Shown in pieces: positions 19,657 through 64,000 of a stretch of DNA of 64,000 nucleotides. Under the pieces are notes generated by a model. That model was given only the letters and a program-made list of their open reading frames with translations. It did not search any database and was not told where the DNA came from. The position numbers and the translations under genes are program-made. Source of the stretch: Halobacteriovoraceae bacterium (GTDB lineage Bacteria; Bdellovibrionota; Bacteriovoracia; Bacteriovoracales; Bacteriovoracaceae); the NCBI GenBank assembly GCA_963719505.1, contig CAVRCF010000003.1:64001-128000 (forward strand). Reading direction: 5' to 3'. Positions within the stretch are counted from its first letter, which is position 1. The number at the start of each line of letters is the position of its first letter.

Positions 19657-19681
19657 TTTTATTTAAATTCTGCAAATAAAT

Positions 19682-48628: not shown

Positions 48629-49456
48629 ATGATAGACAAACAAATGTCAAAACTTTCGCAAACTGCGATTATAGTCCAAACTGCAATGTACATTCTTCTG
48701 GTCATTGCTCTTACAAATTTTAATAGCTTCTATCATAGCCTTGACCATGAAGATGGCTTTGTTGAGCTCACAGGTGCATTCTCTTTACTTGTGGCGAGCT
48801 TTATTCTCTTTCGATCAGCTTTTGTGAGAAAGACTAAGGTTAAAAAAGACATAAAATTTTGGACCTTGATCGTTGCTGGATTAGCCTTTTTTTGGGCTTC
48901 AGGAGAAGAAATAAGCTGGGGCCAACATATGTTTGGAACTGTGACTCCTGAGTGGCTAGCTGAGGTTAACGGGCAAAATGAAACCAATTTACATAATATC
49001 AATAAAAAGTTTTTCGACAGATGGCTTGAAAGGCTGACTGCTCTTTTGGCCATCATTTCAGCTGTCGCTCATTTTAGAGGGAAAGATCGGTTCTTGAGTT
49101 TTAAGTTACCTGAATACGGTTTAGCTATGGCATTCATTCTCATTCCTATTTATAGAAAGCTTCAATCAATTTATGGACATGATATTTGGCCTGTGGGATT
49201 TCTCTTCTTTTTTGTCTATCCTTATCTCGCTTATAAATTGAAAAATTTAAAACTATTCATATATTGCCTACTTTTCGTTTTTACAACAGCACTTGTGGTC
49301 TACATTCATCACAATAATCTTGCCCTTTTTAATGGTAAAAGTAATATCTTGCATGAGGTTAAAGAGATGATGTTCTCGTTGATGTGCGTTTTCTACGCTT
49401 TAACTCTTTTGAAAGACGAAAAGCAAGGGGCATTGGCTTCTTTGAGTGAAAATTAA
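48629..49456 (+). CDS. Conserved integral membrane hypothetical protein
   Basis: EDG.VE, GEEISWGQH, NGQNETNLHN motifs; multi-TM. Confidence 0.7.
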   Translation: MIDKQMSKLSQTAIIVQTAMYILLVIALTNFNSFYHSLDHEDGFVELTGAFSLLVASFILFRSAFVRKTKVKKDIKFWTLIVAGLAFFWASGEEISWGQHMFGTVTPEWLAEVNGQNETNLHNINKKFFDRWLERLTALLAIISAVAHFRGKDRFLSFKLPEYGLAMAFILIPIYRKLQSIYGHDIWPVGFLFFFVYPYLAYKLKNLKLFIYCLLFVFTTALVVYIHHNNLALFNGKSNILHEVKEMMFSLMCVFYALTLLKDEKQGALASLSEN

Positions 49457-49465
49457 ATCTAAACT

Positions 49466-50677
49466 TTAAAGGCAGTTTAAAAGTGAGGCTCTATCAACCT
49501 TTCCACTGGGGAGCCTTGGAATACTTTCAAGTTTTTTAAAGTTCTTGAAAGGGATATTAACCGGAATTGTCTTTAATATTTGGATGTGCTGCTGTCTTGA
49601 TATTTCTATGATTGAAAAACAAAAGAGTTCATCTTTTGGGCTCACTAAGAGAACGAGTTCATTTTCTTTAAGAGTACTTTGAATAGCTTCTTGAAGATGT
49701 AAGAGACTAATTCTATTTCCATCAACTTTAATAATGTCATCAGTTCGGCCTTGGATTGTAATCAGACCTTCCTCTTGAGTTGCTTGATCTCCAGTTTGCA
49801 GCCATCCATCTTTATCGATAGGAGAATCTCCATCAATATAGCCAATCATCAATTGGTCACCTTTAAAAAAGATCTCTCCATTTTCGATTTTAAAATCAAT
49901 TCCCTCGACTGGGTATCCTGTAGCCTTTGTTAAAAAATTCTTGTCTTGAGAATTGAAACTAAGAGCCCTAGGTCCGATCTCTGTTTGGCCATAGTTATTA
50001 TAAATAGTGGCTTTGGGAAAAGCCTCGATGAGGTCTCTTCTAAGGTCTAATCCTAAAAAAGCACCTGCGCTCACAACGTGAGTGATGCAAGTGTTATCTT
50101 TAAGAAGTTTTATAAGGCTTGGAAAGTGTGAAGGGACACCGCTGACCATATTGATATGTTGCTCTTCCACAAGATTTTTTACCTTGATGAAGTGATTGAC
50201 CAAGTAGGTTGTTTTTCCTAATGATAGCGCCGTAAAAAGTTGCCCGATAAGGCCAAATGAATAGGACAGAGGAAGAAAAAGTATTTGAGATTCAATATCT
50301 GAAAAGTTTAAACTTTTTGAGATGGAGGAGATATTTCTTTGAATGCTTTTAAGTGAGAGCTGAACAAGCTTAAGTTTTCCTGACGATCCTGAAGTAAGGA
50401 GCACAAGAGCACAGTCTGGATGTAGGTTCTCTTTAGCCAATATGCTTTCGAGATATTGGGTCTCTTTAAAATCTTTAGGTAGCACCACAGCCGGAATATT
50501 GGCCTTAAGAGAAGCTAGTATTTTCACAATAAACTCAACTGTGGCTCTTGCCTCAAGAATCTGAGTTCCACTGAGCGTTTTAGTCTCCTTTTCCACTAAG
50601 GAATTAAGAGCACCGAAGGAGTAGCTTTTATCGTCTATAACGAGGGCAATAGCTTTAGAATTTATTTGTGATAACAT
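49466..50677 (-). CDS. Short AMP-dependent acyl-CoA/acyl-ACP ligase
   Basis: LTSGSSGKLK, YGQTE, TGD, GRTDD, PRLPSGK. Confidence 0.85.
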   Translation of the reverse strand: MLSQINSKAIALVIDDKSYSFGALNSLVEKETKTLSGTQILEARATVEFIVKILASLKANIPAVVLPKDFKETQYLESILAKENLHPDCALVLLTSGSSGKLKLVQLSLKSIQRNISSISKSLNFSDIESQILFLPLSYSFGLIGQLFTALSLGKTTYLVNHFIKVKNLVEEQHINMVSGVPSHFPSLIKLLKDNTCITHVVSAGAFLGLDLRRDLIEAFPKATIYNNYGQTEIGPRALSFNSQDKNFLTKATGYPVEGIDFKIENGEIFFKGDQLMIGYIDGDSPIDKDGWLQTGDQATQEEGLITIQGRTDDIIKVDGNRISLLHLQEAIQSTLKENELVLLVSPKDELFCFSIIEISRQQHIQILKTIPVNIPFKNFKKLESIPRLPSGKVDRASLLNCL

Positions 50678-50686
50678 AAATTTATT

Positions 50687-51730
50687 ATGAAATTAATCAA
50701 GCCTAATATCAATCTAAAAGTCAAAGGTTCTAGCACCTTCGTTCCACGTGAATTTGAGTATTCAAATTTGGACATTTTAGATATTCACCCTACAACTAAA
50801 ATTCTTCCAAAGTTTGCTAAGAAAAAACTTGCAAGCTCCATTGAGAAGAAATTTGGTTTTGAAAAAAGATGCATGATAAGAAAGCCCGGAGACGACTCAA
50901 GTGTCGCTGATCAACTCAGTAGCGAGGCGATGTCATCTCTTTGCCTTAAGAACTGTTATAAGGACAGCCAGGAGGAAGTTGGCTATTTCATCATGGGTAC
51001 AACGACATCTAGCCGCTATACTGGCTCACAAGCGACAAGTGTCTTAAGTTCGATTAAACAGTTTTCTCCCGCAGTTGAAATGATGGCAGGATGCTCAACC
51101 TCGTTAGCATCTCTCTATACCGGAATTATGGCCCTTCAAAGTGGGCACGACAATGTGATGGTCGTCTGCAGTGAGACAATGTCAAAGATTGTTAATCCCA
51201 AAATAAGAGAGACTTGGTTTGGACTGGCCGATGGGTCAGCAGCTCTTTGGTTAGAAGTGAACAATAAAGATCCAGATTTTAAAGCTCTAGGAATGATTTT
51301 TGGCACAGACGGTGAACATGTCGACATGTACACGACTCAAGGAAAGTTTCCGCCAAATCAAAAAGATCTTGATCATGGAGGCTATGTTTTGGCAGGGGAT
51401 GGTGACAAGCTTCGTGAACTTTCATTAAAGTATTATGGACAGATGATTGAGCATTTTAAAACGCAGTACAATCTAGAGGAAATAAATTATCTGATCCCTC
51501 ATCAAGTTAATAATTCAATCATTACCGAATTCGTTAACAGTCACTTTAAGGACTCAGCTCTTAAGGTGCTAAAAAATAATAAAGAAATAGGTAATATTGG
51601 AGGAGCATCAGTTCTCTATACACTTTGCGATTCTATTGAAAAAGATACTTTTAAAAAAGGTGATAAAATTTTACTCATGAGTGTGGGCGGGGGACTAAGT
51701 TTCTCGATGCATTTATGGGAAAAGCTATAA
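50687..51730 (+). CDS. FabH/KSIII-like ketosynthase (divergent)
   Basis: AGCST, ADGSAA, PHQVN, GNIGGAS, SVGGG. Confidence 0.85.
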   Translation: MKLIKPNINLKVKGSSTFVPREFEYSNLDILDIHPTTKILPKFAKKKLASSIEKKFGFEKRCMIRKPGDDSSVADQLSSEAMSSLCLKNCYKDSQEEVGYFIMGTTTSSRYTGSQATSVLSSIKQFSPAVEMMAGCSTSLASLYTGIMALQSGHDNVMVVCSETMSKIVNPKIRETWFGLADGSAALWLEVNNKDPDFKALGMIFGTDGEHVDMYTTQGKFPPNQKDLDHGGYVLAGDGDKLRELSLKYYGQMIEHFKTQYNLEEINYLIPHQVNNSIITEFVNSHFKDSALKVLKNNKEIGNIGGASVLYTLCDSIEKDTFKKGDKILLMSVGGGLSFSMHLWEKL

Positions 51731-52735
51731 AACTTCTAAAACCATATTCGCGGCTAAACCACCACCACCAGCTGAAATAAGAAGAACCTTCTCTCCTGAT
51801 TTTATGGGATAGGAGGTGAGAAGTTCATTTAAGGCCATCCCCACACTTGCTCCACTTGTGTTTCCATACTTCTTTACCGTTTGAATAACTTTCTCCATTG
51901 GAAAATTTAACTTCTTCGCTAAAGCTGTAATCATATGCAGATTGGCTTGATGAGGCACAACCCAAGATATATCTGTAAGATTCATTTTTGAATTCTCTAG
52001 AAGAGTTAGTGTGGTCTCGTGCATTCCGGCCAGAGCTTTTATATAAAGCTCTGCACCACCTTTCATTTTTAGATAGGGATGAAACTCCTCCTTTACATCT
52101 TGATAAGGTGTTCTTGAACCTCCGTGGGGAATTGAAATAATATCAGAGGCACTTCCATCGCTAAAGAGTTGGCCACAGAGGATTTGAAAAGAAGCTTCCT
52201 TTTTAGAAGAGGATATAACACAGCTTGATGCTCCATCTCCAAATAGAACAGAAGTTTGAAAGTCATCTGGATTTAAAAATTTAGATCGAATCTCACTTGA
52301 ACAAAGAAGAACATCTTTTTTAAACCCACTGGCTATTTGCGCTCCAGTCAAGAGTGAAGTGACAAACCCCGCACAGGCAGCCCCAAGATCAAAAGCTCCA
52401 ATATCTTGTAGATCGAGTCGATCTTGTAAAAGAGGGGCTGTCGGGGGGACTGGATAATCAGATGATACAGTGGAGAAGATCAGGCTAGCGAGATTTTCTA
52501 GGCAGTGAGGATGTAACCTTTTTAACGCCATTACACTTTCAAATCCTAGGTCGCTAACAGCTTTATCTTTTGAGACCCAGTAGCGTGTATTGATTCCTGT
52601 TCGCTTTTCTAAAAGTGAGGGTTTTATGTCACTTCCTATCCAGGCCGCAAAGTCCTCATTGGTTATAAGTCTATCCCCTTTTGCCATACTAGGGCCTATA
52701 ATAAATAAAGGATGATCCGGCTTATAGAAACTCAT
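51725..52735 (-). CDS. FabH/KSIII-like ketosynthase
   Basis: AACAGF, LFGDGA, PHQAN, GNTSGAS, SAGGG. Confidence 0.9.
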   Translation of the reverse strand: MSFYKPDHPLFIIGPSMAKGDRLITNEDFAAWIGSDIKPSLLEKRTGINTRYWVSKDKAVSDLGFESVMALKRLHPHCLENLASLIFSTVSSDYPVPPTAPLLQDRLDLQDIGAFDLGAACAGFVTSLLTGAQIASGFKKDVLLCSSEIRSKFLNPDDFQTSVLFGDGASSCVISSSKKEASFQILCGQLFSDGSASDIISIPHGGSRTPYQDVKEEFHPYLKMKGGAELYIKALAGMHETTLTLLENSKMNLTDISWVVPHQANLHMITALAKKLNFPMEKVIQTVKKYGNTSGASVGMALNELLTSYPIKSGEKVLLISAGGGGLAANMVLEVL

Positions 52736-52737
52736 TA

Positions 52738-53451
52738 TTAAAGCTTACCGGAATTTGGAATGGGGAGTCCACCGGAGACTTCAAGTTTTGTACCAGTTAT
52801 ATAAGAGCTTTCAGCGATAAGCATTCTTACCGGCGCAATAATATCTTCTGGATTGCCCATTCTATTTGTTAAGATCTGCTCGTTCATCTGGTTTTGATAG
52901 GCTTCTCTTTTCCAAATCATTTTATTTCGAGAAGTTTTAAAAAGGCCAAGCCTTAGAGTGTTGGCCAAGATATTTGAAGCGCCGTACTCAACTGCAATAT
53001 TGGTCATTAAACCCTCAAGGGCCGATTTAAGCATAATATAACTGGAGTATTTTGATGTTCCCATGATTGTTGAAATGGATGATATTAGAACGATTCTTCC
53101 AAAATCATTATCACGCATGCTCTCTAATGAAGACTTAATAATAGATAGATTTCCCTTGAGGTTGGACTTTATATAATCGAGCTCCATCTCAGTGTCGAGC
53201 TGTTCAAGCTTGGCAAGTTTATTCATTTTTGAACAGGCATTAAGAATTAAAATATCATAAGAATCTTTTGGGGCTTCATGATCAAAATGGTGAACGATAC
53301 CTTTTGCCTTAAAACCCTGATAACGAATTTCATTTTGCTTTAGAGAGTCTAAACTTGAACAGGTGTAGGTGATATCATAATCTTTATCAAAGGCTAAAAT
53401 AAGAGCATGAGCAATATCTGATGATCCTCCGGTTATAAGCAACTTTCTCAC
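52738..53451 (-). CDS. SDR oxidoreductase (FabG-like ketoreductase)
   Basis: ITGGSSDIA, GRIVLISS, YIMLK, YITG..L.VSGG. Confidence 0.85.
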   Translation of the reverse strand: MRKLLITGGSSDIAHALILAFDKDYDITYTCSSLDSLKQNEIRYQGFKAKGIVHHFDHEAPKDSYDILILNACSKMNKLAKLEQLDTEMELDYIKSNLKGNLSIIKSSLESMRDNDFGRIVLISSISTIMGTSKYSSYIMLKSALEGLMTNIAVEYGASNILANTLRLGLFKTSRNKMIWKREAYQNQMNEQILTNRMGNPEDIIAPVRMLIAESSYITGTKLEVSGGLPIPNSGKL

Positions 53452-53675
53452 TTTGTATTTCCTTTGATAAAGGACTCTATATTTTCTATTGTTCTAAAAG
53501 ACTCTTCTGTGAAGTCTTTAGTCGAAAGTTGCCTCTTTGTTGCCGTCTCTAACTCTGAAAATAAAAGGGCACAGGTTAGACTATCTAAACCATAACTTGA
53601 GAGATCGTCAGTCGCCTTTTCAGGGAGTGTCTCCAAGCCTACGTTTAATAGGGCATCTCTGATAATAGCTTCCAC
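53448..53675 (-). CDS. Acyl carrier protein 2
   Basis: GLDSL phosphopantetheine site; FRTIENI; start and stop overlap neighbours. Confidence 0.85.
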   Translation of the reverse strand: MEAIIRDALLNVGLETLPEKATDDLSSYGLDSLTCALLFSELETATKRQLSTKDFTEESFRTIENIESFIKGNTK

Positions 53676-55423
53676 TAGCTTACCCTTGCTCTAATTTTAT
53701 TCTTGATATTCCTAAAGTTCATTTTAAAGAGGAAAAGAGAGGTTCTTAAAAGAGATTTAGCCTCTTTAGTTAAAAGCTTACCTTCTTCCCATTTCTTTAG
53801 AGTCATTCTTCGTTTTAGTTTTCCTGAACTTGAGCGTAAAAGGACTCCAGGGGAGTAGAGTTCAATCGTAAAAATGGGAAGCGATTCAGAGGCAATGATC
53901 TTTCTGATTTTTCCTTTTATTTCGTCACCATCTTTGGAGATGAGAGTTGTCTGGGAAACTTCAGCAAGAACAACAAGCTCTTCAGTATCATTCTTTCTAT
54001 TATAGAATGATGAAACAATGACTCTTCCTTTTCTGAGACCTTCTATATGATATATTTTTTCTTCAAAAAGTGTTGGATAGTAGTTCTTTCCTCTTATGAC
54101 CATGGTGTCTTTTAGCCTGCCACAAAGGTAGAGTTCTCCTTGATGTATAAATCCCTCGTCACCCGTATCTAGATAATCATCGATAAAAAGACTTAATGTT
54201 TTTTCTAAATCGTTATAGTAACCAGAAGTTATAGATGGACCTTTAATAAGAACTCTTCCAATTTTTCCATCATCTACTTTTGCGCCCTTTTCATCGATGA
54301 TTTTTAAGTCAAAACTTTTTAGCATTCTACCAATGCAACATATTTCTTCGCCATTTGGGTCGAGTTTTATGTGACCCTTAGCTAGTTTTTCTTTATTAAT
54401 TTTTATAAAGCTCATCCCTCTTTTCTTGTCTACCATGGCCACGGCCAAGGTCGCCTCCGCCATACCGTAAACAGGAATTAGGGATGCGCAGTCAAACTTT
54501 GCAGGCTTCACATGGGCAATAAATTTTTCCATGGTTTCACGATAAACCATCTCAGCACCACACATAGCGACTTTGAGGTTAGACAAGTCGTAAGTGGCAA
54601 TCTTATCACTGGGGACTCGTTTTTGAATTAGACCATAAGCAAAGTTAGGCGCTGTAGTGCAAGTCGTTTTAAAATCACTCATCGCTTTGAGCCAAAGATA
54701 CGGTTTTCTTATAAAGTCATCAGGTCTAATCAAGGTGAGATCATTCCCAACAAATAAAGACACCATAAGGACACCCACGAGTCCCATATCGTGGTAGAGG
54801 GGAAGCCATGACGTTACAGATAGATCTATTGGGTCAATAGGTGTTTCCTCAATAATAATATTTGTATTAGTGACAGCATTTTCTTGTGTGATAATAACAG
54901 CTTTTGGGGCACCAGTAGTCCCAGAACTAAACTGTAAAAAACAGATATCAGACTTCTTATAGGTCTCGATATCAAATCTAAAGAGCTCGACACTTCTGTT
55001 GATGCTTTCTATTGTATGAATAGAGATTTGAGTAGAGCTCAGTATGTCATCGCAAAGAGATGATATGTTTAAATCTGTGATAAGGGCTTTACTCTCGATG
55101 GAGTTAATCATGGCACTTGTTCGGTCTGACCACTCGGTCATATCCGTTAGGCTTGCTGGTGGATAGAGAGAAACAGGCACTGCTCCTATCATTTGAGCCG
55201 CAAAAAAAGCGGCTAAAAATTCCTCACATGTAGGAAGCATTAAAGAGATAATGTCATCTTTTCCAAGTCCTATTTTTTTGTAATAGGCAGCATATTTTTT
55301 TGTGTCTTGTAAAAGTGCAGGATATCGATATTCTCGATACTGAGCTTTTCTATCCATAAAACGTATTACGGATCTATCTTCGCCAGCTCGTTCTAAAAGA
55401 AAGTGGAGCGTGTGAAAGTTCAT
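53675..55423 (-). CDS. Fatty acyl-AMP ligase (FAAL)
   Basis: FLQFSSGTTGAPK, SWLPLYHDMGL, TTAPNFAY, YGMAEATL, GRLKD..VIRGKNYYP, SSGK. Confidence 0.92.
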   Translation of the reverse strand: MNFHTLHFLLERAGEDRSVIRFMDRKAQYREYRYPALLQDTKKYAAYYKKIGLGKDDIISLMLPTCEEFLAAFFAAQMIGAVPVSLYPPASLTDMTEWSDRTSAMINSIESKALITDLNISSLCDDILSSTQISIHTIESINRSVELFRFDIETYKKSDICFLQFSSGTTGAPKAVIITQENAVTNTNIIIEETPIDPIDLSVTSWLPLYHDMGLVGVLMVSLFVGNDLTLIRPDDFIRKPYLWLKAMSDFKTTCTTAPNFAYGLIQKRVPSDKIATYDLSNLKVAMCGAEMVYRETMEKFIAHVKPAKFDCASLIPVYGMAEATLAVAMVDKKRGMSFIKINKEKLAKGHIKLDPNGEEICCIGRMLKSFDLKIIDEKGAKVDDGKIGRVLIKGPSITSGYYNDLEKTLSLFIDDYLDTGDEGFIHQGELYLCGRLKDTMVIRGKNYYPTLFEEKIYHIEGLRKGRVIVSSFYNRKNDTEELVVLAEVSQTTLISKDGDEIKGKIRKIIASESLPIFTIELYSPGVLLRSSSGKLKRRMTLKKWEEGKLLTKEAKSLLRTSLFLFKMNFRNIKNKIRARVS

Positions 55424-55656
55424 TATAATTTTGCCTCTATAATATGCGCCAGATCCCCGACAGTTTCGGGATTTTTCTGTAGTTCCTCAGGCTCGAGAGA
55501 AACTTCAAATTTCTCTTCAATCTCATCAATGATTGTCAAAATACCAAGACTATCAAGCCCAAGATCTTCTTTCAGTTTGTCTTCTTTGGTTACTTCTCTA
55601 TCTAAGTACCCATTTTTTTGCACAACTTCATTAATAAAAGATACAATTTTGTCCAT
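55423..55656 (-). CDS. Acyl carrier protein 1
   Basis: LGLDSL, IEEKF, TVGDL; CAGGAG SD. Confidence 0.9.
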   Translation of the reverse strand: MDKIVSFINEVVQKNGYLDREVTKEDKLKEDLGLDSLGILTIIDEIEEKFEVSLEPEELQKNPETVGDLAHIIEAKL

Positions 55657-55683
55657 TTTAATTCTCCTGATTTACCTTTATGG

Positions 55684-55699
55684 AGCAATTTAAGTGCCA
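55684..55699 (-). promoter_or_regulatory. Sigma54 -24/-12 promoter of the ACP-FAAL operon
   Basis: Minus strand TGGCAC-TTAAA-TTGCT, full consensus match. Confidence 0.8.
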
Positions 55700-55756
55700 A
55701 GATCAACAAGATATCTCTTCTGAATCTTTTCAAGGGAGTGTTTAAAAAATAAAAAG

Positions 55757-55773
55757 TGTCTAAAGTTTAGACA
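55757..55773. promoter_or_regulatory. Perfect 17-bp palindrome, putative activator site
   Basis: TGTCTAAA-G-TTTAGACA, 58 bp upstream of the -24 element. Confidence 0.65.
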
Positions 55774-55785
55774 TATTAAAACTTA
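55774..55785 (+). repeat. Left target-site duplication of IS (TATTAAAACTTA)
   Basis: Repeated exactly at 57099-57110; identity extends to ACATATTAAAACTTATG (55771-87 and 57096-112). Confidence 0.8.
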
Positions 55786-57098
55786 TGTGTTGAATCCCAG
55801 CGACTATGTCCGTTTAATATCCCAGCGATTATGTCCTACCTTGTGTGTCATATTGCTCGCTTTTTATAGTCATAAATCCTCTTTGTGTTGAACACTATTG
55901 GATATATTTCTTTACCCATAATATCAAAGCTCTGACTGCCATCAAGATGGGTATTTATATTCACTTCGCGACCTCGATAGCAAAACTTTTCGTCTATCAA
56001 CCAAGTAATTGCTTTGAAAGAAAATACGTTTCCAACTCCAATTTTTCTTCTCTCTTTTTTACAAAAAACTCTGTCTAAATTTCCAAAAACATTTTTCCTG
56101 TAAGCTGTATCGAAGCTTTGCGACTCTACCGAGAACTGCTTATTAAAAGCTTCTATAAAAGTTGTTCTCAAATAGTCATTTGCCTCTTCCAAAGTTTCTA
56201 TTTTATAAAACGAAAGCTCCGCTACCAGTCGATCTTGTAGAGTCCTAAAGAGACGCTCTACTCGTCCTTTAGCTTGTGGAGAGCTTGCAAGAATTAAGTT
56301 AATATTAACCTGATCAAAGGCTCTTGAGATCTGAGATTCCCAGTCTCGATCTACCTTTCCATAAATCCCTGCTTGATCCATGTAGAAGGCTTCTGGAATT
56401 CCATTTTTATCAATTACTTCCTTGATAACTTTCATCGAATGCATCGACTTCTCTCCATAAAAAAACTCTGCTGCTAAAATCTTTCCGGTTGCATCGTCGA
56501 TTGCTGCAATTAAGTCCGATTTGTGATTACCAAACCAAGGGTGATGGCTTCCATCGAACTGCACGAGCATACCTTCTTGAGGGACTCTGGCTCTAGGCTT
56601 GAAAGATCTTCTCTTCGCTCTTCTTGGAGCTTTTACAAGATTGTGTTTAGTTGCAATTCGATGAAGTGAAGACTTTGAAATTTTAATGTTTTCATTTTTA
56701 ATTAACATTTCGTTAAAGTGAGTGAGATTAAATCCAACATACTTATAAGTTAGAAGATCTACGATCAAAGCTTCTAGTCTTTCAGAAGTTTTATTTACTG
56801 GAGCAACACCAGAATTTTTATGTATGACTCCTATGAAGTCATGAGTCTCAACATTCTTAATAATACGTTGAGACTGGCGATACGACTTTTTAGATATGAT
56901 GGAAAATTCTTTAATAGAAATTTTTCCGGCTAAGACTTCACAGGCGAGTCTATAAAGCTTCATTTGTTTAGCATCCATGCTTATTTTTCCCATTTAACAC
57001 CTCAGGTTTGATTACCTGAGTATTGTAATATTAATGCGTTAAGTAGGACATTTTCGCTGGGAAATAAGGATAGGACATAATTGTCGAATCTTTATACA
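55786..57098 (-). mobile_element. Insertion sequence, IS1202/ISNCY-like (~1.3 kb)
   Basis: TGT...ACA ends; two subterminal repeats per end (ATGTCC core, three of four preceded by CCCAGCGA); flanking direct repeat; single DDE transposase. Confidence 0.85.
55848..56993 (-). CDS. DDE transposase (IS1202/ISNCY, IS481-related)
   Basis: N-terminal HTH; GMLVQFDGSHHPW, IDDATG, YMD, SPQAKGRVERLFRTLQDRL. Confidence 0.93.
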   Translation of the reverse strand: MGKISMDAKQMKLYRLACEVLAGKISIKEFSIISKKSYRQSQRIIKNVETHDFIGVIHKNSGVAPVNKTSERLEALIVDLLTYKYVGFNLTHFNEMLIKNENIKISKSSLHRIATKHNLVKAPRRAKRRSFKPRARVPQEGMLVQFDGSHHPWFGNHKSDLIAAIDDATGKILAAEFFYGEKSMHSMKVIKEVIDKNGIPEAFYMDQAGIYGKVDRDWESQISRAFDQVNINLILASSPQAKGRVERLFRTLQDRLVAELSFYKIETLEEANDYLRTTFIEAFNKQFSVESQSFDTAYRKNVFGNLDRVFCKKERRKIGVGNVFSFKAITWLIDEKFCYRGREVNINTHLDGSQSFDIMGKEIYPIVFNTKRIYDYKKRAI

Positions 57099-57110
57099 TA
57101 TTAAAACTTA
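57099..57110 (+). repeat. Right target-site duplication of IS
   Basis: TATTAAAACTTA immediately after the terminal ACA. Confidence 0.8.
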
Positions 57111-57157
57111 TGATCTGTATGGAGACAGATGTTTTGAAACCATGGTACATTTGACCT

Positions 57158-58456
57158 ATGAATTATAGATTTTTGAACCTTGCTGTCGGTGACGCATTTT
57201 ATCTGAGTGAAATTAAGGATCTTCTTGATCCTAATTCTGAGGTTGAGTTTTTTGTCCCCAAGGACTGTGAGAAAATCCAGAGAAAAACATTCGATGGCTT
57301 TTTTACGATGATAACGACTATTGAAGGTGAGAAAGTTGCTATTTGTTATAACGATTTTCGAGGTTTTGGTTCCACTTTTGGTGTTGAAAACTCTTTAAGG
57401 GTTGGAGCATTCCTAGACCATATTACTGATAAAAAGATCCCTCTTATATATTTGGCCAATAGCTCTGGAATACGAGTTCAAGACTCAAGAAAAGTCTTTA
57501 GAAACTCTTTTACTCTTGTGGCCAAGATAAAGAAATTTGCAAAAGAAAACTTATATATTTCAGCTTCCCTTGGACAGACTCTCGGATTAAGTGCATTGCT
57601 CTACTCGTTAGCAGATTATCGTCTGGCCTTAAAAGAGGTTTGTAAATTTAATTTGACGGGGCCTGAAATTTTTAAAATGTTTTTTGGAACAAAAGTTGAC
57701 TTCAGTGATGCCTGTAATGCGGAAACAATGTTGCTTGAAAATCAACTCGTTCAAGACATAGCAGTAGATAAAGCCGATCTTTTCAAGAGGCTCAGAGAGA
57801 TTTTTCAAAAGTCAGCCCCACAATTTAGTCCCGTGGTCACGAATATGGGAGAGCTTCAAAGGTGGATTGAAGGTGACTCTTTAGAACTTTTTTCGAGTTT
57901 TGGTAAATCAGTAAGAATTTTTTTGAAACAGACGGAGCAAGGAAAGATAGGCGTTTTTTATAATCCTTTTAATAACCCAAATATGATGCGGGTTATTGAC
58001 GTACAAAAAATGAGATTTGGTCTCAGCTTTTTTCAAAAATTAGGAATACCTATTTTAAATTTTGTTGATACTGCCGGTGGAGATCCTAGAATAAGTGAAA
58101 ATAATAATAATATCGCCAGGCAGTTATATGATCTTGCCAGTGATATTATTGATTATCCATATTATAAAAGGGCGATTATTTGTGGTCGCTGCTTTGGTGG
58201 CGCATCGATTTTATCTTTTCCAGTCTTCTTTGGAGGGGATAAAACCATCTTAATTGACGGAGCTAAAATAGGCATCATGGACAATAATATAATCAAGCAC
58301 CTTCTTTCAAACGCAAAACCTCTTCTATCAATTTGGGAAGAAAATAAAAAAGAAGAATTTGAAGACTATTCTGACTACGTCAAAGATGGACTGACAACCT
58401 CCTTAATGTCTATTGAGGAAGCTTTTGAGACTCTTACAAAAGAGATTAACTACTAG
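57158..58456 (+). CDS. Stand-alone acyl-CoA carboxyltransferase (beta-subunit-like, divergent)
   Basis: NDF..FGSTFG, NSSGIRVQD, LTGPE, FVDTAG, GRCFGG: two crotonase-fold CT domains. Confidence 0.78.
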   Translation: MNYRFLNLAVGDAFYLSEIKDLLDPNSEVEFFVPKDCEKIQRKTFDGFFTMITTIEGEKVAICYNDFRGFGSTFGVENSLRVGAFLDHITDKKIPLIYLANSSGIRVQDSRKVFRNSFTLVAKIKKFAKENLYISASLGQTLGLSALLYSLADYRLALKEVCKFNLTGPEIFKMFFGTKVDFSDACNAETMLLENQLVQDIAVDKADLFKRLREIFQKSAPQFSPVVTNMGELQRWIEGDSLELFSSFGKSVRIFLKQTEQGKIGVFYNPFNNPNMMRVIDVQKMRFGLSFFQKLGIPILNFVDTAGGDPRISENNNNIARQLYDLASDIIDYPYYKRAIICGRCFGGASILSFPVFFGGDKTILIDGAKIGIMDNNIIKHLLSNAKPLLSIWEENKKEEFEDYSDYVKDGLTTSLMSIEEAFETLTKEINY

Positions 58457-59736
58457 TTTTTCCTCTTCATTTTTATAAGAATTTCTCTGTCTGGCTTTAA
58501 TGTGATGAGCCCTTTTGGTTTTACATCCGGCTTTGACTCCAAAACAAAATCGAAGTGGTAAAAAAGATGCTTTATGACGGTATAAATTTCTGTTTCGGCA
58601 AGTATCTTTCCAATGCAATTTCTCGTTCCAAGGCTAAAGGGAAAATAGGTAAATTGATTAGGCTTTTTGAATTGTCCTTGTGAGTTTAGCCATCGAGATG
58701 TTTTAAAGACCTTTGCATCTTTGAAGTACTTCTCATCTCTTTGAGTCGTATAGGGGCTTAGACTTAAGTAATCTCCAGCTTTAATTTTTACTCCCGATAT
58801 TTCTACATCTTCTATAGCTTTTCTGCCGATATTCCAAACTGGAGGATAGAGTCTGAGCATCTCAAAAATAAAAGCCTTAACAATTGGCTGTTGTTCTAAG
58901 TCTTCGTAAAGAATTTTTTCTTCATAGCATTTTGATATCGCCTCGAGAAGCTCGCCAGTGATAAGACTGTCTTTCACACTTGTATAAAGAATCCACGTTA
59001 GTACTGTGGCCGTCGTTTCATGACCAGCTAAGAAGAGAGCAAGCATTTGGTCATTGATCTCTTTTGGGTCACAACCAGCATTTAAAAGAATACCTATAGC
59101 CCCATTTTCCTCGTCATTTGAATGATTTTCTACCAGTTCTGAAGAGATACTCTGGATGTTTAAAATAGCTTTTCTATATTTTAGGTGGTGGGGCAGAGGC
59201 AGCCACATGATCTTTTTATAACCAGGAATACTCATGTAGGCTATAAGCTTCAAAGCATCTTGCAAACTCTCGTCAATCACCTTCATTTTCTGATCTAGCT
59301 TTTGCCCAAAAAGTAACACTGAAATAATGTCCATTGAGACTTTGGTAAAGAACTCTTCAGTGTTTACTATTTGTGTTTCAGTGTTTTTCAATTGAAGAGA
59401 CATGAGTTCATTTATTTCAGTCTCAAAGCGAGAGACAAAAGCCTTTGAAAAAACTTTTGAAAGATCTTTCCTTCGCTTTATATGATCTTCACCGTCACTC
59501 GATAGAATATTGTCCCCAATTAAAGCTTTTGCATTATTTAAGGCCATTCCTTTGTTGAAGGACTTAGCTTTAGTGAGAAGAATTTCTTTGACGGCTTCTT
59601 GGTTATAAAAAAGATATATTTTTGTTCCGGCCATTCCAATCACATTTATGTCATGCCCTTCTTCAGACATTTTAAGCTGATAGGCCGGTGCATCTTTCAT
59701 ATACTTTATGGCAGAGGCTTTGTTTACTTTACTCAC
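58453..59736 (-). CDS. Cytochrome P450
   Basis: LAGHETT, EMLR (ExxR), heme motif FSLGTRNCIG. Confidence 0.95.
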   Translation of the reverse strand: MSKVNKASAIKYMKDAPAYQLKMSEEGHDINVIGMAGTKIYLFYNQEAVKEILLTKAKSFNKGMALNNAKALIGDNILSSDGEDHIKRRKDLSKVFSKAFVSRFETEINELMSLQLKNTETQIVNTEEFFTKVSMDIISVLLFGQKLDQKMKVIDESLQDALKLIAYMSIPGYKKIMWLPLPHHLKYRKAILNIQSISSELVENHSNDEENGAIGILLNAGCDPKEINDQMLALFLAGHETTATVLTWILYTSVKDSLITGELLEAISKCYEEKILYEDLEQQPIVKAFIFEMLRLYPPVWNIGRKAIEDVEISGVKIKAGDYLSLSPYTTQRDEKYFKDAKVFKTSRWLNSQGQFKKPNQFTYFPFSLGTRNCIGKILAETEIYTVIKHLFYHFDFVLESKPDVKPKGLITLKPDREILIKMKRKN

Positions 59737-60410
59737 TATGCGCTCTTTTGAAAGTAAGTGAATGCAGCGAGCTCAGTACCATCTTTAATTTTATGACGCA
59801 TAAGAAAATTCCAAGGTCCAATCATGCAGTTGTCTCCAACTTTTGTTCCTGGACCAAGTTTTGAGTTAATCCCCACAAAAGAGTTTTTCCCCATTGTCAC
59901 TTTCTTAAGATAGATGTGATTGTCTTGAATAAGGTGACAGCCAATTTGAACCTCATCACCGAGCATGGAGCCTGAACCGATTTCAATGAGCTGAAGATCA
60001 ACCAGATTTACGTACATGCTAGAATTGATACCAAAGGCAATTTTGGCACCCATGGCACGCCAGTATAGGTATTTTAAAATATAAGAAGAGTAGAATAGAT
60101 CTTGAAGTTGGAAGACTCTAATCGCTCGACCTAAGGAGAGATTCAGTCCCCACGCGATAAAACCTTTGTTCATCGTCATAGGAAAGCGTCCCTCTTTGAC
60201 ACGGGGAAGGCATAGCCTTATGCAAAAAATAAAAAATATAAAAATAAAGGGAATAAGAAGAAGAGGGGTAAAGGCTAAAATTTTAAATTGGATTCTATTT
60301 AATAGCCATGAGATAATAGAGTACTCTATGATAAAAGTTAGTATACCGGGCGTCAGTGTTAGGGTTGACGAAATAGTATCGCTTAAAAGAGTGCCAAATG
60401 GATTTTTCAT
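59736..60410 (-). CDS. Membrane-anchored hexapeptide-repeat (LbH) acyltransferase-like protein
   Basis: Two N-terminal TMs, 'YWRAMGAKIA', IEIG/VTMG/TKVG hexapeptide repeats; likely start MKNPF at 60410. Confidence 0.75.
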   Translation of the reverse strand: MKNPFGTLLSDTISSTLTLTPGILTFIIEYSIISWLLNRIQFKILAFTPLLLIPFIFIFFIFCIRLCLPRVKEGRFPMTMNKGFIAWGLNLSLGRAIRVFQLQDLFYSSYILKYLYWRAMGAKIAFGINSSMYVNLVDLQLIEIGSGSMLGDEVQIGCHLIQDNHIYLKKVTMGKNSFVGINSKLGPGTKVGDNCMIGPWNFLMRHKIKDGTELAAFTYFQKSA

Positions 60411-60441
60411 ATCAATCTTTTCGGCTTTAAAGGGTAAAATA

Positions 60442-61902
60442 ATGAGTATAATTAGATCTGTAATGTCGGTTGTCACTTATATGAAATATCGTCAATTCAT
60501 AAAAGCGTGCAAAAACCCCAAAGCGGCTCAAGCAAAGGCTTGGAAGAAAACCTTCTCAAAACTGGCCAATACCTCTTCGGTCAAGCACAACTTAAAAGAC
60601 AATAGAATTACGGAAATATCCGACTACGAAGCTCTGTTTAATGCTAAAAGCAAAAGCCGTTTTAATCCCCTAACAGGTGAGGAGATTCTTTTTTGGGCAC
60701 AAAGTGCTGGAACAACCGGAACCCAAAAAATCTTTCCTCTAAGTAAGTCTTACCAAGAGCAGTTTCAGACTTCTCTGCCTCCTTTTATCTATGGCTTTAT
60801 AAAGAAGTATAAAAACTTTTTGGTAAACCCTTCATTATATTTAGCTGCTATAGATCCTGATGAAAAAGCAGCCTCTGGAATACCAATTGGATTTATTTCA
60901 AATTATAATTATCATCACATGCCTAGATTTATAAAAAACATCTATGTGCTTCCTGATAAAACATTAAAAAATTCGAAGGTCTTCTCAAAGCAAGGTCCTC
61001 TCTATGCACTCGCGGGTGAGCTCAATAGTATTTTCGCCGTGACTCCATTGAGTATTCAAAAATATATGGAAAATATCATTATCAATTGGACTTTTTTTAT
61101 TGAAGAGCTAGAAAAAGAGAATGTAAGTATTTCAGAATCTAGACTTCGCCATCTCCGAGCTCTCGATCCAGATGCTCTGACACTCAAAGAGATTTGGCCA
61201 ACTTTAGAGTTTATTTGCTGTTGGAAGTCTTCTATATGTAAAAATCAGTTAAGAAATATGAAAGACCTCTTAGGTGGAGTTGCTGTTCATGATGCGATCT
61301 ATTCAGCTACTGAGGGATGGATTAATGTACCAACCCCAGAACTTCCTTTTGGTGGACCGGTTCATCCAAGGACCCATGTCGTCGAGTTTCTAGACGTTGA
61401 AAAAGAAGTTTTAGAAGAGAACCTGATCGACTTGTGGGAATTAGAGAAAGGAAAAGAATATGAAATCTTCATCACCAATAATATGGGCCTCGTTAGATAT
61501 CGAATTCAAGATATCGTAAAATGCACCGGCTTTTTTCATCGTTCACCTATTATCCACTTTGAAAGAAAGGCTTCTTCTCAAATAAGCTTGGGGCTTGTGA
61601 CGATCTCTGAAAATGAATTAGTCCAAGCATGCTTTAAGTTAAATATAAAGTTAGATGAGAATCACTACTTTACTCCCAATGAAGAGTCTGACGGGCTTGT
61701 TTACTGTTTTTCCGGAGAGAAGCTTACTCGTGAGGAGTTAATCAACTTGAATGAGTCTCTTAAAGAGATGAATGTAAATTTTAAGAAGTATAGCGAAAAT
61801 GGAACCATTAAAGGTGTGACTCAGCATAGAAGTAAAAAGAGTGAAAATCGATTTCATGCTCAAACAAAGCCTTGCTATCTTTATCAAGAATACTTAGGCT
61901 AA
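60442..61902 (+). CDS. GH3 family acyl-acid amido synthetase-like adenylating enzyme
   Basis: SAGTTGTQK, YSATEG, GLVRYRIQD (GH3 motifs I-III); start estimated at 60442. Confidence 0.85.
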   Translation: MSIIRSVMSVVTYMKYRQFIKACKNPKAAQAKAWKKTFSKLANTSSVKHNLKDNRITEISDYEALFNAKSKSRFNPLTGEEILFWAQSAGTTGTQKIFPLSKSYQEQFQTSLPPFIYGFIKKYKNFLVNPSLYLAAIDPDEKAASGIPIGFISNYNYHHMPRFIKNIYVLPDKTLKNSKVFSKQGPLYALAGELNSIFAVTPLSIQKYMENIIINWTFFIEELEKENVSISESRLRHLRALDPDALTLKEIWPTLEFICCWKSSICKNQLRNMKDLLGGVAVHDAIYSATEGWINVPTPELPFGGPVHPRTHVVEFLDVEKEVLEENLIDLWELEKGKEYEIFITNNMGLVRYRIQDIVKCTGFFHRSPIIHFERKASSQISLGLVTISENELVQACFKLNIKLDENHYFTPNEESDGLVYCFSGEKLTREELINLNESLKEMNVNFKKYSENGTIKGVTQHRSKKSENRFHAQTKPCYLYQEYLG

Positions 61903-61906
61903 AAAA

Positions 61907-62983
61907 TTGATCACCTTTGTTTATTTTCTCAATGTTTTCTTTAACTTTTTTTATGGGATGTTCATTCCTATCATTCCGTTAATGAATGAGTCTCAGGCGG
62001 GTCTTGCCTTCAGCTCCTATGGTCTTTCAAAAATTTTTACCTACTACCTGTTTGGTAAGCTTATTGATTCAGGACGAATAAGACTCTCTCTTGTTATTAC
62101 CTTATTCTTAGTTCTTTTAGTTCCACTCTTCTATTTATTGCTACCGACCTTACCAATAGTTGGAAAGTTCATCGAGGGAATAGCTTTCGCCGGTGGAACT
62201 GTCTTTTGCTTTACTTTTATAACGATCATCTGTGTATCCAAGGAAAAATTCGAAAAAGAACTTAAGAAAATTATGATTCTTTCAAGTCTTGGCTCACTTC
62301 TTGGGCCAATGGCAGGCTATGCTCTTATAGGGGCAGATATCAAAAGTGCTTCGATTCTTTTTCTTGGACTAGCACTCTTAATAAATGGCTTTGGATTTAT
62401 TTTTTCAAAGCAGTTAAAAAAACTTAAAGAGAATCAAATTAATATAGAGTTCTCAGACTCTAGGTCAGATAAACTAAACTACAATCTAGTTGCCTTAGTT
62501 CTCATCTTTAAAGGAATTTTGATGGGGATTCAACCATGTATTGCTTTTTGGTGTAAAGATGTGTTTGGGATGAGTTTATTCGCTTCAGGTGGGGCTTATC
62601 TCGTCTCTGGACTTGGTTTTATCATTGGTACTTTGAAACCTCGTTTTATGGGGATCATTTTTCCAGTCATCAGCTTTGGATTATTAGAAATATCTTTTCT
62701 TTATAGGAGTGAACTCTTTTGGATTGCCAACTTTGCAATCTCTTTTTGGCTAGGATCAAGCTTGGTCAGGTGCCTGCTTGATCTGGGATGGGTGACAACG
62801 GACAAAGCAGGAAAGCTTAATTCTTCTTGGATGGCCATCTCAGATTTGCCTTTAATGATTACTCCTGCTCTATTTTGGGAGGTAAAGCTTGTCAGTAGTC
62901 TCTCTGTTAGAGTCGGCTTAATAGGGATGTTTTTAGCCGCAGCTTTATACTTTCAAACAAGACAAAAAAGGAGATGGACTTGA
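61907..62983 (+). CDS. MFS transporter (divergent)
   Basis: About 12 TM; GKLIDSGR motif-A-like, GKFIEG, GSLLGP. Confidence 0.75.
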   Translation: MITFVYFLNVFFNFFYGMFIPIIPLMNESQAGLAFSSYGLSKIFTYYLFGKLIDSGRIRLSLVITLFLVLLVPLFYLLLPTLPIVGKFIEGIAFAGGTVFCFTFITIICVSKEKFEKELKKIMILSSLGSLLGPMAGYALIGADIKSASILFLGLALLINGFGFIFSKQLKKLKENQINIEFSDSRSDKLNYNLVALVLIFKGILMGIQPCIAFWCKDVFGMSLFASGGAYLVSGLGFIIGTLKPRFMGIIFPVISFGLLEISFLYRSELFWIANFAISFWLGSSLVRCLLDLGWVTTDKAGKLNSSWMAISDLPLMITPALFWEVKLVSSLSVRVGLIGMFLAAALYFQTRQKRRWT

Positions 62984-63372
62984 TAAAAAAAACCTTAATG
63001 ATTTTACCTCTCGTTTGCTTCTTGTTTTTATTAGGTCGAAATATTTGGATCATTAATGATTCGGTTGAAGAGATAGGAATTCAAATTTCTTGTTCAGTAA
63101 AAACGAGTCAAAGTGGTAAAGTCCTCGCTAGAAATATCCCCGTGGTTCAGAGGAAAAATGGTAAAAAAGTTTATGGATCAATAGGCGAGCCAAAGGTCTT
63201 TGACTATTGTAAAGGGTCTATCGGGAAGAAGGTTAAAGTGCTCGTTGAAAAAGGTGGATCTGAAGATGCGAGGATTTATACCTTTTGGCAGTTTTGGTTC
63301 TTACCTATGCTTTTTGCCTTTTTTTCTCTTATCTGGATTATAGGTATTAAGAATAAAATGACTAAAGATTAG
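62974..63372 (+). CDS. Small two-TM protein (DUF3592-like)
   Basis: TM, beta-rich region, 'IGKKVKVLV...EDARI..FWQFW', TM. Confidence 0.55.
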   Translation: MDLIKKTLMILPLVCFLFLLGRNIWIINDSVEEIGIQISCSVKTSQSGKVLARNIPVVQRKNGKKVYGSIGEPKVFDYCKGSIGKKVKVLVEKGGSEDARIYTFWQFWFLPMLFAFFSLIWIIGIKNKMTKD

Positions 63373-63472
63373 TTCGGTTTTAGCGAATTCTATCTTGTGA
63401 AAGTTCACCGTGGCTAACTGTGAGTAAATACTTGAGAAAAACTAAAAAATGCCTAATGATCTGGCCAGTTAT

Positions 63473-63501
63473 TTGACTTAAATGGCTATTTTTAGTATAA
63501 T
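63473..63501 (+). promoter_or_regulatory. Sigma70 promoter of proB (likely leaderless)
   Basis: TTGACT-N17-TATAAT, ATG 7 nt downstream, no SD. Confidence 0.75.
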
Positions 63502-63508
63502 ACGCGCA

Positions 63509-64000
63509 ATGAAATCAATCGGAAATTTATCACTTAGAAAAGAACTTATTGGCTGTAAACGACTGGTAGTCAAGGTTGGAAGCAACGTTGTTACAAAATC
63601 TGATGGTCGCTGTGATATTCGGAAAATGCGAATTATTGTGGAGGATATCTGCGAACTTGTAGACTCTGGCTTTGAGGTTATTCTTGTCAGCTCGGGTGCC
63701 GTTAGTGTCGGAAAAGCATTCTTAAAGACCATGCTTCCAAAAGAGGGAAGGGTAGATCTGCAGCAGTCTGCTAGTTCAATTGGTCAGCCAAAACTTATAA
63801 ATAAGTACTCGCAGTTATTTGAAGATCACGATCATATTTGTTCTCAAATTCTTTTAACTCACGATGACTTTAGAAATAGAAAGAGGTTTCTTCACGCTAA
63901 ACAGACCATAGAAGTTCTTTTACAAAACAAAATAACTCCTATCTTAAATGAAAACGATTCTATTTCATATTCAGAAAATACAGTCGGCGATAATGATCAT
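63509..64000 (+). CDS. proB: Glutamate 5-kinase (3' truncated by window edge; not in ORF track)
   Basis: Own translation: RLVVKVGS, ILVSSGAV, IGQ, QILLT.DD, PILNEND, GDND. Confidence 0.93.
   Translation, partial: MKSIGNLSLRKELIGCKRLVVKVGSNVVTKSDGRCDIRKMRIIVEDICELVDSGFEVILVSSGAVSVGKAFLKTMLPKEGRVDLQQSASSIGQPKLINKYSQLFEDHDHICSQILLTHDDFRNRKRFLHAKQTIEVLLQNKITPILNENDSISYSENTVGDNDH

Follow-up and report, generated by a model that had tools for sequence, protein, structure and literature searches.

In Singulisphaera acidiphila, the GH3-family enzyme OlsH (UniProt L0DAW6 as cited in PMC12971839) uses ATP to couple a free fatty acid with ornithine, forming N-acyl-ornithine, after which OlsI, an alpha/beta-hydrolase, O-acylates the product with an ester-bound second chain (PMC12493201). 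Bacterial homologues of GH3 run to thousands, and OlsH is the only one reported to have a known function (PMC12493201). Here we describe a gene cluster in a window of 64,000 nucleotides (positions 64,001 to 128,000 of contig CAVRCF010000003.1, assembly GCA_963719505.1; source genome G000), from a Halobacteriovoraceae bacterium, in which a GH3 gene lies among genes for the loading, condensation and reduction of acyl chains. We tentatively read this cluster, at a little short of an even chance, as a single pathway that makes a specialised envelope lipid, either a lipoamino acid or an aminolipid.

Other described systems share parts with the cluster. Ornithine lipids can be hydroxylated by OlsE, a member of the di-iron fatty-acid hydroxylase superfamily (PMC12971839). 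The accD4-pks13-fadD32 genes together with CmrA lead to alpha-alkyl beta-hydroxy acids (PMC8733736). In Pls, acetyltransferase-like units of the left-handed beta-helix (LbH) type lie between transmembrane (TM) segments, three in tandem, at the C-terminus (PMC8117764). In the Nlt and Lst systems, NltB and LstB are described as lacking the catalytic triad, NltC is about 60 kDa, and lipstatin receives its amino acid afterwards (bioRxiv 10.1101/856955).

What is new in the present cluster is a custom acyl-chain module tied to a GH3 enzyme; GH3-dependent synthesis of N-acyl amino acids and aminolipids is already known, and the component families are familiar. To our knowledge, few specialised lipids or natural products have been described from predatory Bdellovibrionota. 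Searches of the open-access literature found no account of this gene combination, nor of aminolipids or GH3 clusters in Bdellovibrionota, and no characterised match to the locus, as anticipated by an initial annotation of this DNA, which had not recognised it as a characterised pathway.

Results

Gene content and conservation of the cluster

Open reading frame (ORF) calling combined with Pfam and NCBIfam searches placed twelve recognisable lipid-type genes at 49466-62983 of the window. The slightly longer stretch 49466-63372 holds fourteen ORFs, namely these twelve, one transposase and a 132-amino-acid (aa) ORF without a family (Table 1). The twelve encode a compact ligase (ligS), two type III ketosynthases (KSIII; KS3a and KS3b), a short-chain dehydrogenase/reductase (SDR), two acyl carrier proteins (ACP1 and ACP2), a fatty acyl-AMP ligase (FAAL), a carboxyltransferase (CT), a cytochrome P450, an LbH acyltransferase, the GH3 enzyme and a major facilitator superfamily (MFS) transporter. 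The initial annotation had named the same domains, all of which were recovered by the family searches, and its ORF ends agree exactly with ours. It had counted eleven of twelve genes as lipid-type; the lipid gene set stands, and the count is corrected to twelve recognisable genes plus the family-less ORF. It had also noted, rightly, the absence from the stretch of a modular polyketide synthase (PKS) or nonribosomal peptide synthetase and the presence of three adenylating enzymes (ligS, FAAL and GH3).

Relatives were sought with a GH3 profile built from nine closer clade sequences, which gave 19 loci in 185,579 species genomes, to which two loci from sampled genomes and one from a metagenome scan were added; one locus (L034, in G221) was covered by tblastn and an ORF list. 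Thirteen loci fall in the GH3 clade, which we define by a GH3 of 33% identity or more across most of the protein. The closest relative locus, on a metagenome contig (L032; GH3 81% identical), is about 80% identical and carries all twelve genes, in unchanged order and without the insertion sequence (IS), the single genes being 53-94% identical. As in G000, it is flanked by the small upstream gene on one side and by proB-proA on the other. Orthologues of KS3a and ligS are present in nine of the thirteen clade loci (L032, G011, L013, L014, L016, L018, L019, L020 and L029), which we call core loci. KS3b and the short CT occur in eight of these nine, the ninth locus starting inside KS3b, and the SDR likewise occurs in eight. 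This core (ligS, KS3a, KS3b, SDR, ACP, CT and GH3, often with LbH and MFS) is found in differing gene order and at GC contents of 35-72%.

Co-occurrence was also counted across 401 genomes sampled evenly from the phylum, where the GH3 clade (E<=1e-40) was found in 10 genomes and KS3a in 8, all 8 within the 10, related genomes not being independent in these counts. In six of the seven genomes besides G000, a single contig carries both KS3a and GH3 with less than 8 kb between them; the seventh assembly is in 630 contigs. Co-conservation in other genomes had been set beforehand as a test of the initial proposal. Because the genes are co-conserved in other genomes, we dismiss a chance neighbourhood, and the comparison argues that the cluster genes are one co-conserved unit. 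FAAL, ACP2 and P450 lie outside its widely conserved core, with orthologues in L032 only.

More distant GH3 loci have a different setting. Eight of them (L021-L028; GH3 26-28% identical, from Sericytochromatia-type and other Cyanobacteriota metagenome-assembled genomes, MAGs) have no partner genes, and a partial distant locus (L030) has a FAAL. In one core genome (L011, G011:C23, 13147-20000) the CT is split into two ORFs and ligS into three fragments, and a single TAA interrupts GH3, while KS3a, KS3b, SDR and ACP are whole; the broken frames could be decay or assembly error, the MAG being 66% complete.

GH3, LbH, P450 and MFS

The GH3 protein scores 63 bits for the GH3 domain and 71 bits for GH3_M, each against a Pfam gathering cut-off of 23.6 (PF03321/PF23571), and matches JAR1 and plant GH3 enzymes in the PDB at 31-46 bits. 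In alignments of 22 and of 9 clade sequences, the motifs SAGTTGxxK, YSATEG and YRxxD, which we take to correspond to the nucleotide-binding motifs of plant GH3 enzymes, are invariant or nearly so. Nucleotide-binding motifs of bacterial GH3 proteins are described in general terms in the OlsH report, and the initial suggestion that this GH3 is an amide-former fits what is reported there for OlsH (PMC12493201). The clade is small, with 43 of the 44 proteins listed, the window's own included, matching at E<=6e-63 and the next at 7e-28, and its few named members are from Halobacteriovoraceae or Bdellovibrionota MAGs.

LbH lies beside GH3 in nine of the thirteen clade loci. Its best NCBIfam match is TIGR02353, the terminal domain of Pls/PosA, at 59 bits, far from the cut-off of 423; the protein has a hydrophobic stretch at residues 62-95 of the long ORF and weak PDB matches to GlmU and LpxD. 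The long ORFs of GH3 and LbH overlap, and similarity to relatives sets in at 60442 (an ATG) for GH3 and at 60410 for LbH, which makes these the most likely start sites. The GH3-LbH pair also occurs in another genus of the same family (L033, G199:C17:52000-71999, at about 8600-19800), in a genome where tblastn finds no KSIII homologue. There the pair sits in a different lipid-type cluster, with an extended SDR/3-beta-HSD-like gene, a fusion of HMG-CoA reductase and an APH-type kinase, a CarS-like gene, a PEP-utilising enzyme, a methyltransferase and a PlsC-type acyltransferase.

The P450 carries the haem motif FSLGTRNCIG together with AGHET and EMLR, and its only orthologue, in L032, is 77% identical; by its motifs and distribution we regard it as an accessory tailoring oxygenase. 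The MFS protein has many hydrophobic segments, and homologues stand beside GH3 or LbH in five of the nine core loci.

Adenylating enzymes and carrier proteins

The NCBIfam models closest to ligS are MenE, the acyl-ACP synthetase part of Aas, A-domains, AmcH and DltA, all below cut-off, and a profile of its orthologues aligns across the full ANL fold with MenE, oxalate-CoA ligase and DltA in the PDB, at 153-161 bits. Near relatives also include 4CL-type ligases (4-coumarate, 4-chlorobenzoate), with FadD5 at 139 bits against 161 for MenE, and a look-up in the ESM Atlas returned generic short AMP-binding clusters only. By eye, TSGSSGKLK, YGQTE, TGD, GRTDD and a C-terminal SGK are all present, to which we presumptively assign the usual names of adenylation motifs. 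Probably, ligS loads a carboxylic acid onto ACP1 or onto CoA.

For FAAL, the best NCBIfam model is the fatty acyl-AMP ligase PRK09192, at 367 bits and short of its cut-off of 600, and in the PDB the protein is nearest to E. coli FAAL (3pbk, 223 bits), with a continuous alignment, followed by the FAAL entries 7r7e and 3kxw. The gene has an ACP gene on either side. Its only orthologue is in L032 (82%), and distant FAALs at 23-29% identity occur in L015, L017, L030 and L031, a distribution that marks FAAL as accessory to the lineage of G000 and L032. Both ACPs carry the GLDSL motif with the phosphopantetheine serine. ACP1 orthologues were detected in five of the nine core loci, detection being weak for so short a protein, and the sole NCBIfam match of ACP1 is a weak one to the cispentacin carrier AmcB; ACP2 has an orthologue only in L032, at 94% identity. 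Between G000 and L032, ligS (at 394-1578 in L032) is 53% identical, ACP1 64% and SDR 66%, against 77-94% for the other nine genes, which could mean that selection on the loading module has been relaxed, or favours diversification, in the lineage with FAAL and ACP2.

Elsewhere in G000, at about 330,200-336,200 of contig C5, tblastn gave SDR, FAAL-like and KSIII-like matches at 23-29% identity to the cluster proteins, which may be a further lipid cluster.

Ketosynthases, SDR and carboxyltransferase

KS3a retains the triad Cys (AGCST), His (HQVN) and Asn (GNxGG) in all ten aligned orthologues. The best PDB match of its profile is FabH, at 114 bits, with no OleA chain at E<=1e-10, and KS3a adjoins ligS in every locus, forming a conserved KSIII subfamily of its own. 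KS3b reaches 243 bits for the NCBIfam KASIII model PRK09352, just below the cut-off of 249, and its best PDB matches are 3-oxopimeloyl-ACP synthase (BioZ, which is primed with glutaryl) and FabH, at 150-162 bits; the motifs AACAG, PHQAN and GNTSG are kept in all nine aligned orthologues. A housekeeping fabH on contig C1 is 33% identical to KS3b, and G000 also has a housekeeping fabG and a canonical CT outside the cluster.

The SDR has YxxxK at 138-142 and TGG at its N-terminus, and scores below cut-off for the NCBIfam 3-oxoacyl-ACP reductase models. The CT is strongly divergent (59 bits for Carboxyl_trans, cut-off 22.3), and both of its halves align to the propionyl-CoA carboxylase beta chain 1vrg. 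The segments SGIRVQD, DTAGGDP and FGGA occupy the expected motif positions, with one GG replaced by G-L, and presumably serve the roles that we ascribe to these motifs. The Pfam scan found no gene for a biotin carboxyl carrier protein or biotin carboxylase within the cluster; carboxylation of an acyl thioester by the CT is a prediction.

Variant clusters and transport genes

Three high-GC loci (L015, L017 and L031) carry a variant of the cluster. In L017 it is a tightly packed operon on one strand, with genes for an SDR, a FAAL (427 bits for the NCBIfam FAAL model), two KSIIIs, an ACP, a canonical CT (Carboxyl_trans, 433 bits), GH3 and a di-iron fatty-acid hydroxylase; nearby are an LbH, a further AMP-ligase, a PLD-like gene and MlaD. 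L015 has an L017-like core and two MMPL genes. An apparent LbH-ligase fusion in L015 was rejected, the two matches lying in different frames. Canonical CTs of the variant clusters score 177-433 bits. As FAAL, carboxyltransferase and hydroxylase recur here through non-orthologous genes, it is such functions, and not only particular genes, that would belong to the pathway, and the pattern argues that a carboxyltransferase is integral to it.

Transport genes accompany several of the relatives. Genes for an ABC ATPase, a MacB/FtsX permease and a LolA-like protein separate KS3a from MFS-GH3 in both L018 and L029, L019 has ABC and FtsX genes, and in L013 an MMPL gene follows MFS. By family, these are lipid-trafficking types.

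Extent of the cluster and its setting

We take the cluster to run from ligS through MFS, because synteny with L032 sets these bounds and the ORFs at the edges have no match there. Downstream, the cluster stretch is followed by proB.

Table 1. Features of the cluster and of its insertion sequence, with positions in the window unless a contig of G000 is given.
Feature	Position	Strand	Evidence or location
ligS, compact class I adenylate-forming ligase, 403 aa	49466..50677	-	Pfam AMP-binding, 94 bits
KS3a, divergent FabH-type KSIII	50687..51730	+	Pfam ACP_syn_III and ACP_syn_III_C
KS3b, FabH/BioZ-like KSIII	51725..52735	-	Pfam ACP_syn_III and ACP_syn_III_C
Classical SDR, FabG-like ketoreductase	52738..53451	-	Pfam adh_short_C2, 85 bits
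ACP1, carrier protein	53448..53675	-	Pfam PP-binding, 26 bits
FAAL, fatty acyl-AMP ligase, 582 aa	53675..55423	-	Pfam AMP-binding, 194 bits
ACP2, AcpP-like carrier beside FAAL	55423..55656	-	Pfam PP-binding, 38 bits
18-bp palindrome GTGTCTAAAGTTTAGACA	55756..55773	.	ACP2/CT divergent intergenic region
ISNCY-family insertion sequence	55788..57096	-	transposase ORF 55848-56993
CT, short two-domain carboxyltransferase, acyl-CoA carboxylase beta type, 432 aa	57158..58456	+	Pfam Carboxyl_trans, 59 bits
Cytochrome P450	58453..59736	-	Pfam p450, 206 bits
LbH, membrane-anchored left-handed beta-helix acyltransferase	59736..60410 (long ORF to 60476)	-	Pfam Hexapep
GH3-family acyl-acid amido synthetase	60442..61902 (long ORF from 60166)	+	Pfam GH3 and GH3_M
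MFS-type membrane transporter	61907..62983	+	Pfam MFS_1, 42 bits
132-aa ORF, hydrophobic ends	62974..63372	+	no Pfam or NCBIfam family
Other IS copies	C1:89365-90671, C5:845647-846953, C2:381878-383184, C2:178701-179993		G000

Two hydrophobic ORFs without a family stand at the edges of the cluster, one of 275 aa upstream of ligS (48629-49456) and the 132-aa ORF after MFS. The 275-aa membrane ORF has no tblastn match in L032, nor has the 132-aa ORF, MFS being followed there directly by proB, and membership of the latter in the cluster is doubtful.

Two gene pairs are tightly divergent, ligS/KS3a (50677-50687) and LbH/GH3 (60410-60442), with about 9 and 31 bp between the start codons, and a layout of this kind is also found in L013, L018, L019 and L029. 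With start codons so close, the promoters must lie within neighbouring coding sequences. A promoter and terminator scan of 48000-64000 was uninformative, giving 44 promoter-like sites where 43.5 were expected and 14 terminator-like sites where 12.9 were expected. The GC composition is unremarkable and gave no island signature across the cluster. Three genomes of the same genus were considered for an empty-site comparison; they are fragmented, and their flanking proteins are only 45-51% identical.

Insertion sequence and palindrome

The transposase in the ACP2/CT divergent intergenic region matches the NCBIfam model transpos_ISNCY_2 at 303 bits, above the cut-off of 250, and the IS breaks no gene. 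Five copies occur in G000, 99.7-100% identical. The copy in the window is flanked by the direct repeat CATATTAAAACTTATG, and it is missing from the equivalent intergenic region of L032, from which we conclude that the insertion is recent.

All five copies lie directly 3' of a palindrome resembling TGTCTAAA-N-TTTAGACA, and the four full-length copies have a flanking direct repeat of 16-19 bp that begins with the last bases of the palindrome, which suggests that the IS is target-specific, with a long duplication. Counting 17-mers within three changes of the palindrome gives 41 in the genome, where ten scrambled controls give 1.5-17.5. The palindrome beside ACP2, GTGTCTAAAGTTTAGACA, has a single exact copy in the window and is kept in L032 with one change. 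It is certainly the preferred target of the IS, and it may in addition be an operator-like site.

Discussion

In this study, we compared a GH3-centred cluster of a Halobacteriovoraceae bacterium with its relatives to ask what its genes might make together. In the envelope-lipid pathway that we tentatively favour, ligS would load a carboxylic acid onto ACP1 and, in the lineage of G000 and L032, FAAL would also load a fatty acid onto ACP2. The CT would supply a carboxylated extender, KS3a and KS3b would condense this extender with an acyl primer, and the SDR would reduce the 3-keto group to give a beta-hydroxy acyl chain. GH3 would then adenylate the carboxylate and couple the acid with the amino group of an amine or amino acid, ornithine being the acceptor in the case of OlsH, and LbH would transfer a second acyl group from acyl-ACP (here ACP2) to a hydroxyl or a second amine in an OlsI-like step. 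Finally, the P450 would hydroxylate the lipid and MFS would move it to the envelope, a task in which MacB-type ABC, LolA-like and MMPL proteins may also take part in relatives. By family and motifs the catalytic equipment of these enzymes looks intact, and the fatty-acid and ACP-based chemistry proposed in the initial annotation is supported. We infer all of the substrates, the sequence of reactions and the way in which the acid leaves ACP.

Within this pathway, KSIII condensation leading to a two-chain lipid is plausible. In a mycolic-type version, the CT would carboxylate the alpha-carbon of a fatty acyl thioester and a KSIII would fuse a pair of long chains head to head, with an alpha-alkyl beta-hydroxy acid as the outcome. 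We slightly favour such a condensation over one or two ordinary malonyl extensions, because it gives the conserved carboxyltransferase a necessary role. The fuller proposition, that a mycolic-acid-like condensation from free-standing parts is coupled to GH3 amidation in Gram-negative, Bdellovibrio-like bacteria and in some high-GC lineages, we consider unlikely.

Several points weigh against the envelope-lipid pathway as a whole. It is drawn from gene content, every substrate in it included. The GH3 clade is likened to OlsH by family, motifs and neighbours, and not by sequence identity; the orders in which a 2026 review lists OlsH homologues (at least 30% identity, 70% coverage) include, in the part of the review available, no order of Bdellovibrionota (PMC12971839). 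No alpha/beta-hydrolase family of the OlsI type was found among the 15 ORFs scanned with Pfam and NCBIfam, and there is no thioesterase among the cluster genes to free an acid for GH3, while free fatty acids are the substrates of OlsH. The nearest relatives of ligS are ligases of small, aromatic or dicarboxylic acids and that of KS3b is BioZ, which would fit a short, non-lipid starter. The cluster in G000 itself has no LolA, MacB or MMPL gene, its divergent CT could be a decarboxylase or a mere supplier of malonyl units, and the need for two KSIII enzymes has no explanation in the pathway.

Some of these points lead to another product. If a short, aromatic or dicarboxylic starter were loaded by ligS onto ACP1 and extended by one or two malonyl units through KSIII and SDR, the cluster would make a diffusible small metabolite, such as a signal or antibiotic; GH3 would attach an amino acid to the extended acid, in the manner of the plant GH3 enzymes that act on jasmonate or auxin, MFS would export the product, and FAAL, ACP2 and LbH would add a lipid tail in some lineages only. 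The ligS profile, nearest MenE, oxalate-CoA ligase, DltA and the 4-coumarate and 4-chlorobenzoate ligases, speaks for this, as do the 3-oxopimeloyl-ACP synthases at the top of the KS3b matches, the resemblance of ACP1 to AmcB and, weakly, of ligS to AmcH, the MFS as the only transporter in the G000 cluster, and a spread as patchy (10 of 401 genomes) as that of accessory metabolites. The score margins are small, however (FadD5 139 against MenE 161 bits; FabH 150 against BioZ 162 bits), FAALs recur in the variant clusters, LbH is membrane-anchored, and the only bacterial GH3 enzyme reported as characterised uses fatty acids (PMC12493201). The LolA-like, MacB-type ABC, MMPL and MlaD genes of the relatives fit a lipid, and it is on account of these genes that we prefer an envelope lipid to a diffusible agent. 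The same genes tell against the signal or anti-prey compound suggested in the initial annotation. We hold a small metabolite to be improbable, though it is the main rival of the envelope-lipid pathway.

A cluster with two KSIII homologues, an ANL enzyme and an SDR also resembles in outline the Ole, Lst and Nlt pathways, in which a KSIII heterodimer would join two acyl-CoAs non-decarboxylatively, the SDR would reduce the product and the ligase would close a beta-lactone, leaving a beta-lactone or an olefin. The details fit poorly. All aligned orthologues of KS3a and KS3b have Cys-His-Asn, whereas NltB and LstB are without the triad, and OleA chains reach 29-34 bits, far below the best FabH-type chains at 59 (KS3a) and 162 (KS3b). 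At 403 aa, ligS is shorter than the 60-kDa NltC, and its nearest PDB entries are CoA or carrier-protein ligases (MenE, oxalate-CoA ligase, DltA), with no beta-lactone synthetase among the matches listed. There is no OleB-like hydrolase, and the conserved carboxyltransferase and ACP would not be needed. Such a product is very improbable here.

It is equally improbable that the locus is a row of unrelated modules (KSIII/ACP, GH3/LbH/MFS and FAAL/ACP/P450) with no common product. GH3 and LbH do occur without KSIII homologues in G199, GH3 stands alone in the eight distant loci, and FAAL, ACP2 and P450 have orthologues only in L032. Against this, all eight KS3a-positive genomes among the 401 are GH3-positive, the genes remain linked despite much reshuffling of their order and at GC contents of 35-72%, and L017 is one tightly packed operon on a single strand. 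Least probable of all is an outer-membrane pigment cluster of the aryl-polyene, flexirubin or dialkylresorcinol type, for which the ACP, ligase, SDR and KSIIIs and the LolA-like, MMPL and ABC genes of relatives, typical of pigment clusters, might argue, but the Pfam and NCBIfam scans of the stretch found no FabF/FabB-type ketosynthase, dehydratase or DarA homologue, and the DarB model gave 38-40 bits, against a cut-off of 550, over the C-terminus only.

A distinct GH3 clade is here tied to a dedicated acyl-chain factory, which makes the cluster family a concrete and testable case for a second function of bacterial GH3 enzymes. Should the CT and KSIII pair join two chains, the cluster would be a convergent, disassembled counterpart of mycolic condensation in diderm bacteria, and the mycolic-like version would give a new class of two-tailed aminolipids in which the second tail is linked by a carbon-carbon bond rather than an ester. 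An envelope lipid found in 10 of 401 genomes could bear on the envelope properties of the lineages that carry it, and the compact ligase, GH3 and membrane LbH are candidates for making N-acyl amino acid surfactants.

Comparison with known systems

Among described systems, the likeness to OlsH and OlsI lies in a GH3 enzyme with nucleotide motifs that adjoins a second acyl-transferring enzyme and tailoring genes, with ATP-dependent N-acylation of an amino acid and then a second acylation as the expected chemistry. The hydroxylase next to GH3 in L017 is an enzyme of the same kind as OlsE. In our cluster, unlike that system, the partner of GH3 is a membrane LbH, there is no OlsG methyltransferase, and GH3 is embedded in a KSIII, ACP, CT and ligase set. 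By analogy, the GH3-LbH pair looks like a counterpart of OlsH-OlsI with a different second enzyme. For the latter, Pls offers the nearest model, in that LbH has the same layout of TM segments followed by LbH and has TIGR02353 as its best match. In Pls, these domains link an acyl group held on a carrier with a free amine. The LbH of the cluster differs in standing alone as one unit, where Pls has three in tandem, fused to an adenylation-thiolation (A-T) module.

The two KSIIIs have in common with the initiation enzymes FabH and BioZ the Cys-His-Asn triad, both ACP_syn_III domains and their best PDB matches, and differ from them as paired paralogues tied to GH3, CT and ligS. With OleABCD, LstA-F and NltA-D the cluster shares two KSIII-fold genes, an ANL-superfamily enzyme and an SDR; it differs in its FabH-like KSIIIs with a triad, its shorter ANL enzyme, its conserved ACP and carboxyltransferase and the lack of OleB. 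The mycolic system, whose exporter is MmpL3, is matched by a FAAL with its carrier, a carboxyltransferase, a decarboxylative condensing enzyme, an SDR ketoreductase and two carrier units, with MMPL genes in relatives. The ORFs scanned with Pfam and NCBIfam contain no acyltransferase (AT), thioesterase (TE) or type I ketosynthase domain, and for want of a type I PKS we do not count the cluster as a member of that system. What sets it apart are stand-alone FabH-type KSIIIs, a short divergent CT, a GH3 amide step and Gram-negative hosts.

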